Shown here one piece after another: positions 10,020-32,528 of a stretch of DNA of 64,000 nucleotides (position 1 is the first letter of the stretch; each line of letters starts with the position of its first letter). The position numbers and the translations under genes were made by a program. This stretch comes from Eledone cirrhosa (lineage: Eukaryota), in the NCBI GenBank assembly GCA_964016885.1, contig OZ024753.1, positions 3,844,001-3,908,000 on the forward strand. Reading direction: 5' to 3'. The notes beneath the pieces were generated by a model. The model did not search any database. It worked only from the letters and a program-made list of their open reading frames with translations, and was not told the origin of the DNA.

Positions 10020-12049
10020 CACCGGAATAGAGTTGTTGAACAACCATCACAATAGCCACCTGCGCCAGTGTGACGTCATGAGATCTTAACATAATTATGT
10101 GGGTGTCTTGATATGTTGTTAGCTAACGCGACCATAAACAACACAGTTACTAGTAATATAATATGTAATATTATATATTTCGTATATTGTAATTCACTAA
10201 TTACATTTGCCAGGTTGTTATTCTAACATACTATATATATATAGTTTAATTTGCTTATGTTAAATGATTTGTTTTATATATGTTTCAGGTTAAATTTAAA
10301 TTATAAAATAAAGAGTAATACCTAAAGAAAATTATAAAAGTGCAATAAAGTATGAAATTGTTAAAAAGTGGATTAAACAGATTTATTGATACTGGCTTTT
10401 CTCACCCTGAATAAAGGGTAAGTTGTGTTTTAAGCACGAATTTTCATTAGTATGATTAGTGTTCTTTTATATGATTTAAATATGTATTTCCCTTTCCAAT
10501 ATTTATTTTGTATTGCATATCAAATTTATTTTCCAAGACAAGTATTCTGAGGAGATGGATGCTGAGGACTTGGATTACCTTCCTGAGGTACCAGAACAAG
10601 TTCCTCACTTCCCACCTCAAAAAGAAGTCAATGACTTGTTCAGGGATATGGGGATGATCAAGTCCAATGCAGAGCTATTCGTCTCCAGGATGAAGCAGTG
10701 GAACTTGGTCAAGGAGGAAGTGCAGGTGACAAGTCAGAGAAGTCGACACGAACCTTTCTCAGGCTTTTACACTCTTAGGGATGGCCTCTGCTTCTGCCAT
10801 GACGTGCCTGGACTGTTTGACATTATTGGGGTGCCGTTTGTGCCCAAGGAGTGGCGGCTATTCATAGACAGCTCCACTACAAGTTTGAAGGCTGTCCTCC
10901 TCCATAATGGAAACAAGTTCCCAACACTGCCCCTAGCTCATTCATCTGCCCGAAGGAAGATTACTACAGTGTGAAAGTCCTCTTGGAAGCTCTGCAATAC
11001 AACCAGTACAACTGGGAAATCATTGGAAACTTCAGGATGGTGGCTTTCCTGCTTGGCCTCCAAGGAGGCTTTATCAAATTCCAATGCTTCCTCTGCCTTT
11101 GGGACAGCAGAACCACATCTGGCCACTACAAAAAAAAAAGAACTGGGAGCAGCGAAGAGAATTTGTAGTTGGGACCCGGAACGTCATGTGGGAGCCATTG
11201 GTTGATCCTAGGATTGTGCTCATACCGTCACTGCACATTAAGCTGGGGTTGATAAAGCAGTTTGTGAATGCTCTCAACCAAGAATCAGCCACTTTTAAGT
11301 ACCTTCTTGAGTTTTTCCCCAAGTTATCTGAGGCCAAAATCAAAGGTGGAATTTTTGTTGGACCTCAGATAAAGAAGGTGTTTGAGTCTACCGAGTTCTC
11401 CAATAAGCTCAATAGGATTGAGAGAACAGCATGGAACTGTTTCAAGGCAGTTGTTAAGGGCTTCCTTGGCAACTACAGAGCTGAAAACTACCAGCAACTG
11501 GTGCAGGATCTGATAAAGGCTTTTGGCGCCATGGGATGCAGGATGTCGCTTAAACTCCATATGCTGGACGCTCACCTGGAAAAATTCAAGGACAATATGG
11601 GCACCTACTCAGAAGAACAAGGCGAACGATTCCACCAAGATGTGAAAGATATAGAGCGGAGGTACTAGGGCCACTACAATGAAAAAATGATGGGGGACTA
11701 TATCTGAGGGCTAGTGCGGGAATGCGACCTGGACTACAACCGTAAATCCAGGAAATCCATTCATTTCTGACGTGTATAAGTTGCTTTATAAGTGTTATTT
11801 GTTTTTACTTGTTTGCTTTTGATACGCTTGTGTAATAAAATAAATATATACTCTGTTGATTTAATTTTATGAACTGATAAATTTTTAAAAAAAGGTGTTT
11901 TTTTTAAATATGAAAATTTCGAAATATCAAACTCCTGACCACAAACCCAAACTTCTGATGAAATAATAGTGATTTTTTTAATAATAATGGGATAAACAAA
12001 CTATGAAATGACACTTAGAACCGAGGAACCAAAAATATGTTACACGGTG
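10020..12049 (+). mobile_element. CMC-superfamily DNA transposon, Chapaev3-like, ~2030 bp, internally deleted and non-autonomous
   Basis: Termini 5'-CACCG (10020) and CGGTG-3' (12049), flanked by TAA (10017-10019) and TTA (12050-12052). CAC..GTG ends with TWA flanks are characteristic of Chapaev3. Encloses the transposase pseudogene below. Confidence 0.75.
10538..11770 (+). pseudogene. Chapaev3-type DDE transposase pseudogene (2 frameshifts, 2 premature stops)
   Basis: Joined ORFs 10513-10974, 10971-11168 and 11084-11668 give WRLFIDSS..SLKAVLLHNGN, CFLCLWDSR, LHIKLGLIKQFV, KIKGGIFVGPQI, MSLKLHMLDAHL and SEEQGERFHQD. The frame continues RRY*GHYNEKMMGDYI*GLVRE...IHF* to 11770. Frameshifts lie near 10950 and in the A-run at about 11130-11139. 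The N-terminal Cys-rich domain is not visible. Confidence 0.88.
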
Positions 12050-16620: not shown

Positions 16621-17518
16621 GGAGATAGAGAAAGCAATAAAGCACACACACAAACATATATACGTTATTAATTTTATATTATTTGCTCGACGGCTAAGCT
16701 TGACGCGTCTCGAGAGCATATGCATATCTCGTAATATATATATATATATGTAGATATATATATATATATATATATATATAGATATATATATATGATAATT
16801 TTATTTCACCCTCTAGCACAGCTGATACATAGAAGGCCCTATGCATATGTACATACACACATATGTACATACATACATTATACACACACATATATATATA
16901 CATACGCATAATACGTATATACATACATTATACATATGTACACACACACGCACACACTCATATATATATATGTACACATTATATATAGATTATACATATA
17001 CACACATACATTATGCATACATACATTATATGTACATACATACATTATATGTACATACATAATATATATATATATATACATTATATATATATATATCTAA
17101 AGAGAGAGAGACATAGATAGTAATTCATATAGCTATCAACACCTAATTATTATATCCTCACACATCCTCATCCATGAATATGAAGTGAGAAATTATACAG
17201 TCTCATGATACTAATAAACACCGAACGTTTTTAATTACAAATGTTGATGAGTTAGTTTGAACATAAAGATGGAATACACTACGTTCTTCATTTCATGTAT
17301 GTATACATACATAACGGAATTTCAGGCATACACCCATCATACACAAAAACACGTAGAAACGTAAATTGACAGACACATGCTCACACATTCACACGTTTTT
17401 ATGTACTTTTGCATGCACATATTCAAACTGAGAATTAATAATATATATTAATATTAAGAACAAATTCATGCACATAGTTATTATTATTACTATTATTATT
17501 ACTCATATATATATATAT

Positions 17519-18257
17519 ATAAACATAACGATTTACATATACATAAAGTCACAGATATATATATGCCAACCGTTCACGACGTGGCTCACTGAAGAATTAA
17601 TAAATTAAATAATCAGAGCAATATATCATAAATCATGTCCTTAGAATTCTTAGATAAAATATATACAATTTCCTCTCCTAATTAGCATAATTAACCATAT
17701 AAAAATTCAATTAGACCAGGCTATAAGAATAAAGGCTCCTATGAAGAAATATTTGATAAATAACCGAAAGCAGCCTCTTCGCGGTTGACCACAATAGAAT
17801 ATTTACCCATCATTTCAACAGCATGTAGAAACTGACCAAATATACCATCAACCATACACAATTAGGTATAAATTTAAAGTTAGAAAAATGTGAACATACC
17901 GTAATTATATCCCTACCATGGTTTCGTTCGTATTTTGAAATATCCTATTAAGGATAAATCTCAAGTATCGAACTCATCAGGAGACAAACTCAATAGGACA
18001 GTTAATTTTCCAAAGCGATCCCGCCCGAAATAGATTTTAAAAATGGCTAAGAATCGTGACGTGGCAGAGATCAAGTTAGAAATAATGTGATTAGTTGCTT
18101 ATGGCGAGTAGGCTGGTTGCTAGAAAGTGCAGCCCAATATCACCCAAATTGCATCTCAACCCAACGGGAGATTAATAAACAAAGATTTACATATATATAA
18201 AGTCACAGATATATATGTGGAAACCGTTCACGATGTGGCTCAATGAAGAATTAATAA
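17519..18257 (-). mobile_element. Retrozyme / non-autonomous Penelope-like unit: ~654-bp monomer with ~80-bp terminal direct repeat and an internal hammerhead
   Basis: Direct repeat GATTTACATAT.ATAAAGTCACAGATATATAT..AACCGTTCACGA.GTGGCTCA.TGAAGAATTAATAA at 17519-17603 and 18175-18257. Hammerhead at 17908-17986(-). The 3' end on the minus strand runs into (TA)n. No ORF. Confidence 0.65.
17908..17986 (-). ncRNA. Type I hammerhead ribozyme, complete core
   Basis: Minus strand: TGTCTC-CTGATGA-GTTCG[extended hairpin]CGAAC-GAA-ACCATGGT-A-GGGATA. Stem I TGTCTC/GGGATA (two G-U), stem II GTTCG/CGAAC, palindromic stem III ACCATGGT, GUA cleavage triplet. Confidence 0.85.
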
Positions 18258-18455
18258 TCCCCTTCCACCGTTTTTCCTCCCCCCCCCTTGTTTCTAAATG
18301 TCTCTCCACCACTCCCCCACACACCCTGGGAACTCTCTTCCCACCCACTTTTCTCCTGAAGATGGGCTTATGCCCGAACCCCCCCCCCCACTCAAGAGCG
18401 TGAAGCTAATAAACCTTTGTTTGTACTGCCTCTGATTTTGTTCCCGTCCCAGTTT

Positions 18456-18459
<4 letters not shown>
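18258..18459 (+). mobile_element. Penelope-like pLTR-type fragment with a damaged hammerhead motif
   Basis: C/T-rich stretch, then CTGAAGA-T-GGGC-TTAT-GCCC-GAAC (18356-18379; GAAA altered and followed by poly-C), AATAAA at 18408-18413, ending at (TA)n. Confidence 0.55.
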
Positions 18460-18494
<35 letters not shown>

Positions 18495-20480: not shown

Positions 20481-20528
20481 GAAAAGTGTCAGGACCCCGA
20501 CGGCTGAGTTCCGGCCGTTTCGAACTAT

Positions 20529-20561
<33 letters not shown>

Positions 20562-20563
20562 CA

Positions 20564-20758
20564 TAACTAAGTAGGTGTGGTAAAGAGCCAGATGGACCAT
20601 AACGCACCAGAGTACTCAATAGTTAGGGTAGTAGAGTGGGTAATAGGAACATGTTTAAACCCGACGGCAGAGCTCAAGCGGTCTCGACGGCTATTTCTGG
20701 GGTCCAGAAATAGCCGTGGAAACAGCTTGAGCTCTACCGCCGGGGTTAAACATTTTCC

Positions 20759-20761
<3 letters not shown>
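20564..20761. mobile_element. (TA)n-embedded fold-back element, family A (hammerhead 3'-half palindrome)
   Basis: Inverted repeat 20643-20700 / 20704-20761 with 3-nt loop GGT; homologous along its length to 33398-33602; (TA)n on both sides. An extra fragment lies at 20481-20526. Confidence 0.75.
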
Positions 20762-23460: not shown

Positions 23461-23622
23461 ATGTGGGACCCCGACGGCTGAGCTCCGGCCGTTTCAACAG
23501 CTAGATCCGAACTTAGACGTTGGGGCCGGGCATTTTTCATATTACCTACTCTACAACCCCAAGTATCGAGTACTCTAGTAAGTAATGGTCTGACTGGTTT
23601 TTACCGTCTCCATTCTTATATA
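23461..23622. mobile_element. Family A fold-back element, diverged copy
   Basis: GGGACCCCGACGGCTGAGCTCCGGCCGTTTC followed by TATTACCTACTCTACAACCCCAAGTATCGAGTACTCT, the reverse complement of the family A long arm at 20600-20645. Confidence 0.65.
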
Positions 23623-24323: not shown

Positions 24324-24745
24324 CCGGGAGAGATGACCCCTTAGCCTTTGTCAAGGCAGAATTCTAGGAGAAGGAAAACTCTGATATAACACCTGCAACT
24401 CTGATGGTATCCAATGATGTTGACTTGTTCTTCTTTTTGGTAAATATCATCTTGGTTAAGAGAGTGGGACTGGCTTTGTGCAGTGCCTTTGTTCACTATA
24501 AAAGCTTCACGGCACAGGCATTGCTTTATATCTGGAGATCTCACTGCTCTTGTCGTCACATGGTACCATGGGCCCATGGTACCATGGCACTATGTGTCAA
24601 TAATTGTCACAAGTGTAGTGTTTGTACCAGAGTTTTCAAGTCGCTGGCTGGACTAAAAAGGCACACTCGTTCAGTGCATCGGTAGGGGTTCTCCTACATG
24701 GATATAAAGTAGTGGCCGTACTCGAAAACGAGTTGGCAGCCACCA
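24324..24745 (+). mobile_element. Short bipartite RTE-derived retroposon, copy 1 (5'-truncated)
   Basis: Closely similar to 31073-31622. Contains TCTAGGAGAAGGAAAACTCTGA (RTE 5'-UTR-like) and encodes [22 protein letters not shown] (C2H2 finger typical of RTE ORF C-termini). Ends GGCAGCCACC before a microsatellite. Confidence 0.85.
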
Positions 24746-32233: not shown

Positions 32234-32381
32234 ATTATTTAACGATCGTTTCTAGGATATATATGTGTTAGAATTGGCATGCATATTCAACAGATCTATG
32301 TACAAAATTATACAAAATTATACAAACTATCAAGATTAAATATACATACCAACACATATATACGCCGTCTTCAGAAATAAA
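32234..32381 (-). ncRNA. Type I hammerhead ribozyme, mirror copy in the left arm
   Basis: Reverse complement of 32381-32528. Confidence 0.8.
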
Positions 32382-32528
32382 TTATTTCTGAAGACGGCGT
32401 ATATATGTGTTGGTATGTATATTTAATCTTGATAGTTTGTATAATTTTGTATAATTTTGTACATAGATCTGTTGAATATGCATGCCAATTCTAACACATA
32501 TATATCCTAGAAACGATCGTTAAATAAT
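32381..32528 (+). ncRNA. Type I hammerhead ribozyme with long stem II
   Basis: ATTATTT-CTGAAGA-[CGGCGTATATATGTGTTGG...CTAACACATATATATCCTA]-GAA-ACGATCGT-T-AAATAAT: 7-bp stem I, long stem II, palindromic stem III, GUU triplet. Confidence 0.8.

Follow-up and report, generated by a model that had tools for sequence, protein, structure and literature searches.

A hammerhead ribozyme motif with a long stem II in a non-coding repeat of Eledone cirrhosa with Penelope-like insertion marks

The hammerhead motif carried on the minus strand of the 64,000-nt stretch of Eledone cirrhosa DNA analysed here (the window) very probably belongs to a non-coding repeat with the insertion marks of Penelope-like elements (PLEs). 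There it would cut transcripts made of several units, acting as a pair according to the folding predictions, and the single copy present at this locus is likely inert. The hammerhead likely serves the replication of the repeat itself, not a host gene. The features of the locus are collected in Table 1.

Table 1. Coordinates of the repeat, its neighbours and the parts of the hammerhead motif in the window
Feature	Position	Strand	Remarks
One 654-nt unit of the non-coding repeat family	17604..18257	minus	Longest stop-free frame, 46 codons
Repeat of the first 77 nt of the unit	17527..17603	minus	With 17620-17604, forms the 94-nt 'tail'
(AT)n tract	17504..17520		3' end of the element, target microsatellite
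3' fragment of family B, another high-copy PLE-like family	18259..18460	plus	Joined head-to-head to the unit, no microsatellite between
(TA)n tract	18460..18492		3' end of the family B arm
Type I hammerhead ribozyme motif	17908..17986	minus	Predicted cut (GUA) at 17914/17913
Stem I, 5' strand UGUCUC	17986-17981	minus	
Core CUGAUGA	17974..17980	minus	Position 7 is U, A or C across subfamilies
Extended stem II	17926..17973	minus	48 nt, at most 17 bp in three segments
GAAA	17925-17922	minus	
Palindrome ACCAUGGU	17915..17922	minus	2 bp intramolecular, 8 bp between two molecules
A17	17914	minus	
Stem I, 3' strand GGGAUA	17913-17908	minus	Stem I of 6 bp, two of them G-U

A re-reading of the letters places the core, the stems and the G-C pair that opens stem II (10.1-11.1) where the initial annotation had put them (17986-17908, minus strand), and the position of its predicted cut is likewise right. 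Downstream of stem II the minus strand reads GAAA, CCAUGG, UA and then the stem I partner GGGAUA, and CUGANGA, GAAA and UH surround a three-way junction with stem I open, the arrangement of a type I hammerhead. Stem II is formed by GUUCG/CGAAC, a 4x4 internal loop, UUGAGA/UUUCAA, a 2-nt bulge and UAUCCU/AGGAUA, and is capped by a UAAU loop. The A-rich internal loop is placed 5 bp from the core, at the usual position of loop 2. A strict descriptor gave one match in the window and at least one match in 1 of 200 block-wise shuffles, and genome-wide the hammerhead core pattern has 273 matches, the reversed control having 0; the motif is therefore more than a chance arrangement. Rfam returned no hammerhead at the gathering threshold, nor any at E values up to 10, probably as a consequence of the long stem II. 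Judged on its sequence, the hammerhead-ribozyme motif is genuine and its stem II unusually long; cleavage itself is predicted.

The letters that the initial annotation assigned to stem III are present, but within one molecule the palindrome closes just 2 bp around a CAUG loop, and no stable stem III was found for the monomer. The folding energy of the motif is unremarkable (z -1.37, with 16 of 200 shuffles folding equally well), and the active monomer fold has a probability of 7e-5. Two molecules folded as a double hammerhead reach -48.4 kcal/mol, 1.2 kcal/mol above the dimer optimum (-49.6) and 9.8 kcal/mol below two monomer optima (-38.6); the dimer fold is likewise favoured in known animal type I motifs. 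When the motif was folded within 200-730 nt of context stem II persisted (0.2-1.0), with a probability of at most 0.12 for stem I. On these models the window copy, the sole copy at its locus, is probably inert.

Pairing was examined in an alignment (A1) of 60 rows that holds the window copy, 56 anchored copies and 3 added diverged copies, two of the latter chosen via the core pattern; 19 of the 78 anchors lacked the motif, and two truncated rows and one duplicate were dropped. The stem cells pair in 82.2% of cases, compared with 78.5% in shuffles, a test inflated by the relatedness of the copies, and 31-50% when the partners are slid. Double changes occur in stem I, where one pair is C-G 34 times and U-A 21 times and another U-A 44 times and C-G 5 times, and in proximal stem II (U-A 33, C-G 25; G-C 30, A-U 8). 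Of five covariation measures, two are no better than the shuffles (both-side changes, 298/500; further pair types, 464/500), RNAalifold predicts zero consensus pairs on A1, only about 72% of the distal stem II cells pair, and 21 of 59 distinct copies lack the 10.1-11.1 pair.

A second comparison used 128 copies that had not been selected by their core and that contain seven subfamilies of at least 3 copies, up to 24% away from the window. Ten of the 11 core positions are constant across these subfamilies, against 180 variable columns among the 414 that flank them. The variable core position is number 7, which hammerhead catalysis leaves free. Compensatory stem changes are thus found together with a core that is constant against its flanks, as in a type I hammerhead, and covariation across subfamilies upholds the original call of a hammerhead. 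An intact identical core is present in 90 of the 128 copies; in the subfamily of the window 32 of 42 cores are intact (26.8 expected), a nearly neutral decay of single copies that makes the window copy nothing special. This copy differs by 3.3% from the commonest letters of its subfamily and its siblings by 4.2%. Stem II measures 46-51 nt in 75 of the 89 copies in which it could be measured, so that its 48-nt length is a family trait.

The direct repeat of 77 nt at a spacing of 654 nt defines the window copy as a 1.1-unit monomer, that is, one unit and the start of the next up to the (AT)n tract. Its 94-nt tail lies between the two preferred 3' ends of the family, 17621 and 17527. A search of the 3.0-Gb genome gave 4,777 candidates, the best 40 of which match most of the unit at 91-95% identity, and a 21-mer placed 45 nt downstream of the cut has at least 2,460 exact copies (control, 0). 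Contigs from public runs that cover 17536-18473 reach summed depths between thousands and hundreds of thousands, while the flank has a depth of about 12 or less; these are three runs of one sample, assembled as contigs, and bear on copy number alone. A covariance model built from A1 found one copy in the 64-kb window, and when run on 80 sources (the window, GIY-YIG loci and loci of families B and C) it scored strongly on known unit copies only. None of the 128 window reading frames of at least 62 codons reached the Pfam cut-off. A sigma-70 promoter scan was set aside as irrelevant to this genome.

Family B, whose fragment abuts the unit, has 3,416 candidates at 85-93% identity. Its arm in the window contains a degenerate minimal hammerhead, with CTGAAGA at 18356; other copies continue to GAAACG, a segment replaced here by a C-run, and the minimal hammerhead of this copy is therefore probably dead. 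Within the unit, the minus-strand stretch 17900-17721 shows a donor-like GGTATGT 13 nt past the cut, kept in most subfamilies, a CTAAC near 17883 and an acceptor-like TTATAG at 17721, and could possibly be an intron like those that PLEs keep; one contig joint skips 17665-17720, which does not match that intron model. Elsewhere in the window, two overlapping plus-strand frames of 164 and 243 aa (10480-11668), with no Pfam match, look like a frameshifted transposon-derived gene, and a single C2H2 zinc-finger-like match on the plus strand (24368-24682) scores 24.0 bits against a Pfam cut-off of 25.2. At 32301-32461 CTGAAGA occurs on both strands, near 32374 and 32388, in an inverted repeat with TACAAAATTA units; this is possibly a back-to-back insertion of another repeat, and a similar sequence is seen in locus L117. 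A short interspersed repeat (GGACCCCGACGGCTGAG...) with (TA)n flanks and internal inverted copies is found at 20492-20760 and 23466-23495 and is frequent in other loci too.

A trace of activity was sought in the 5' ends of the copies, which were mapped upstream of an anchor at +13 from the cut in 95 of 236 pattern matches of one large subfamily, with a longer stem III of 4-5 bp, and in 90 of 444 of the palindromic type to which the window copy belongs. The pairing probability of stem III was 0.9 and 0.07 in long-stem copies and 0.003 in two palindromic copies. In the long-stem-III subfamily, full-length rulers place 16 of the 52 ends within 265 nt at -1 to +13 (5.7% expected, P 2e-8); two of the 16 probably represent internal deletions or diverged copies, which leaves 14 by eye. 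A related full-length-ruler run gave 14 of 27. The palindromic type has 5 of 41 ends in this interval, a pile-up that is not significant (P 0.08), and the two groups differ with P 0.02 in one full-length-ruler run and P 0.053 in the other. These results agree with the junctions as read directly. The window unit as sole ruler, which misplaces the ends of diverged subfamilies, gave no pile-up at the cut, and neither did rulers that include truncated copies, aligned via their (TA)n flanks (3 of 95 and 4 of 90). The near-cut ends lie mostly at +3 to +8, where they would be compatible with trimming of a cleaved template to the nearest TA as well as with stalling at stem I. The pile-up in the long-stem-III subfamily is taken to indicate, indirectly, that the motif cleaves or folds in vivo. 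In most copies the sequence continues through an intact hammerhead, and cleavage would then be incomplete or the template circular. For the anole PLE, PMC11167929 describes RNA ends at the cut as absent, cleavage as requiring protein, and hammerhead mutants as without effect on insertion in vitro.

The same ends could be read without useful cleavage: the motif would fold and cut little, stem II would be a structure for PLE-protein binding or pausing, and the reverse transcriptase (RT) would stall at stem I. Of the 16 ends in the pile-up, nine map to +5 to +8, where stem I has its 3' edge, and just 3 to -1 or 0; an AT-rich stretch farther downstream also gathers ends (9 more at +15 to +44 by eye, in 78 copies), the pair adjacent to the core is U-U or A-A in large subfamilies, and minimal PLE hammerheads are reported to cleave poorly in vitro (PMC4209133). 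Such a reading nevertheless appears unlikely, since the unpaired core bases are constant between subfamilies except at position 7 and both groups have ends precisely at the first base past the cut. A U-U at 10.1-11.1 has, moreover, been reported for active hammerheads (PMC3088659, PMC7229834).

The link with PLEs comes from the way in which the copies are inserted. The 3' ends come from 78 copies located through the 21-mer, which make up most of the first 100 places listed (the tandem array left out): 54 end at 17621-17629, 11 at 17519-17531 and 2 at 17545-17555, a further 7 continue as the following unit and 4 stop at other positions, and at the two main sites the sequence runs into (AT)n. 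With the two arms of an insertion counted separately there were 202 5' ends, of which 110 border on an inverted arm from the family itself, 58 on a microsatellite and 34 on some other sequence. Dimers of the unit are present at L111 and L184, and a tandem array of 45 units has an inverted 5' arm and (AT)n at both ends, with 38 units matching the core pattern. This array (L218-L221, G000:C1:92,986,472-93,016,033) spans 29.6 kb, shows a higher-order periodicity and an A-A mismatch beside the core of its hammerheads, and may owe its length to unequal crossing over. The family combines partial tandems with inverted 5' arms, an optional tail and a microsatellite target, as expected of a non-autonomous PLE; partial tandems, inverted 5'-truncated arms, an optional tail and a microsatellite bias are the traits described for PLEs (PMC8557442), and in the anole PLE two internal start sites define the tail and both strands of AT-rich DNA are acted upon (PMC11167929). 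At the 5' junction of the window copy, two RNAs primed on both strands of one nick would explain the arrangement, independent insertion and recombination being the alternatives. At L254:2504-2952 a unit is joined head-to-head, through 25 nt, to the 3' end of an RT-GIY-YIG family (that of L106), a candidate composite insertion; it represents one of the 34 'other' 5' junctions, which were compared with three families only.

Frames with RT and GIY-YIG domains are present in the genome, with at least 150 scored matches listed (10,596 candidates) and frames of 938 and 1,096 codons, and their elements share the end structure of the unit. The RT-GIY-YIG frame of L106 has pseudo-LTRs (pLTRs) on both sides, each with a palindromic minimal hammerhead of the U3-A8 core, a variant known from PMC4209133, and another RT-GIY-YIG family has two 3' ends about 40 nt apart at (TA)n. 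Long RT-GIY-YIG frames with a CxxC-type linker before the endonuclease were noted at L106:3809-6622 (minus), L108:1275-4562 (plus), L114 and L115, and appear Neptune-like in the sense of PMC8557442.

Such elements raise the alternative that the unit is the pLTR of an autonomous PLE and that its copies are 5'-truncated stumps with local tandem duplications. Its end structure and the position of its hammerhead do parallel those elements, pLTR origins have been reported for Xenopus retrozymes (10.64898/2026.07.22.740005), and those looked at were 30 of the 150 listed GIY-YIG matches and a few long frames. Against this, the in-register upstream sequence is always the end of a previous unit and never an ORF, the 34 'other' 5' flanks have neither a common upstream sequence nor a PLE protein match, and the ORF-less layout is identical in the subfamily 24% away. 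No autonomous element with an RT-GIY-YIG ORF between pLTRs of this unit was found, and about 65 GIY-YIG/PLE loci, a small part of the 10,596 candidates, showed no homology between the unit and an autonomous PLE pLTR. L054/L117, where a GIY-YIG frame is followed after 1.2 kb by a copy of the unit at 78% identity, was considered as a parent and rejected, the unit being placed beyond the (TA)n end of the element and the link being seen in 0 of 29 other copies of it. That the unit is simply such a pLTR appears improbable. Since no autonomous element carrying the unit was found, the mobilising protein is one that we infer.

The initial annotation had further proposed that the motif could cut the host transcript if it lay in a minus-strand intron or lncRNA. 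Such cutting, with a regulatory effect, is highly improbable: the core and G10.1-C11.1 are intact, the motif would be part of any transcript across the locus and might find a partner in RNA from other copies, but this is an ordinary copy of a high-copy mobile repeat, alone in 64 kb and predicted to require a partner, no more diverged than its siblings, with a core whose intactness is the rule and near the neutral expectation in its own subfamily, and none of the surrounding frames reaches the Pfam cut-off.

For the favoured reading, a hammerhead of a PLE-mobilised repeat, the following course can be envisaged. Source loci with at least two units would be transcribed, and two hammerheads would pair through the palindromic stem III and cut after GUA, to release unit-length linear or circular RNA; cleavage is likely incomplete. 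A PLE RT-endonuclease acting in trans would nick (AT)n, and reverse transcription would begin at one of the two internal sites, each with an AT-rich end. The back-to-back arms would arise from priming on both strands, with two different RNAs occasionally involved as in the window.

Several known systems resemble the family. Animal non-LTR retrozymes (PMC7229834; bioRxiv 10.64898/2026.07.22.740005) are likewise non-coding units of low GC content with one type I hammerhead each, occur as monomers, dimers and long arrays, and are proposed to depend on PLEs; the same sources describe a weak stem III with a palindromic loop in axolotl HHR_Amex1 and, in HHR_Amex2, the U-U at the base of stem II that is seen here in one subfamily. 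The unit is longer, however (654 nt against 150-450 bp), as is stem II (46-59 nt against about 4 bp plus a loop; PMC7229834; 10.64898/2026.07.22.740005), and most copies are PLE-style insertions of 1-1.9 units with inverted arms and two fixed 3' ends. One hallmark of a non-LTR retrozyme, type I hammerheads in successive non-coding units of a tandem, is seen in the family, which by analogy would work like a PLE-dependent one, with unit-length linear or circular RNA as the predicted product. The hammerheads of PLE pLTRs (PMC4209133) share the type I topology, a small palindromic stem III, predicted cleavage as dimers, a larger-than-usual stem II and massive dispersed copies; in that source stem II has 6-8 bp and a bulged base follows A9, whereas here it has up to 17 bp with internal loops and no bulge, and no ORF is attached. 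Two RT start sites that define a tail, AT-rich or (TA)n targets, partial tandems, inverted 5'-truncated arms and cleavage with extension on both strands are also features of the endonuclease-bearing (EN+) PLEs Poseidon PAc of the anole (PMC11167929) and Neptune/Naiad (PMC8557442). The tail of those elements measures 30-40 nt, against about 94 nt here (PMC11167929, PMC8557442); in addition, the two start sites of the present family are found some 290 and 390 nt beyond the cut, both ending AT-rich like the target, and the family is non-coding. In some Naiads the half-cores are 35-50 nt apart (PMC8557442), so that long spacers had been noticed already, though not modelled.

Unrelated hammerhead-like motifs with long stem II spacers and a palindromic stem III near (TA)n were observed at L121, L126, L127, L035, L128 and L134, and a long stem II may be common in the genome. 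A literature search, supplements aside, returned no paper on the 654-nt family; variants with a long stem II may nonetheless be in print. A 2017 paper in RNA Biology is said to treat dimer-cleaving PLE hammerheads, and may be where such variants are found.

Hammerheads in PLE repeats and in retrozymes are already well described and the locus itself is ordinary; the architecture of stem II and the fossil signal in the 5' ends represent a modest extension of that known context. Since Rfam misses the hammerhead with the long stem II, descriptor-based counts are probably too low for motifs of this kind. The insertion structures point directly to the PLE machinery, where published arguments rest on co-occurrence and phylogeny. 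The family also offers a natural comparison between subfamilies predicted to cut alone and those predicted to cut only when paired, with a matching difference in their insertion starts, so that a few short RNAs would suffice to test cleavage in vivo. A wider reading, put forward tentatively, is that of a retrozyme bearing the marks of its mobiliser: PLE insertion on both strands including composites (the window, L254), 5' ends set by cleavage in the subfamily that folds alone, and a stem II of new architecture in which the internal loop would replace loop 2 and the distal hairpin would recruit the PLE protein. If true, it would provide direct genomic evidence on which enzyme moves animal retrozymes and on the cutting by PLE hammerheads in vivo.
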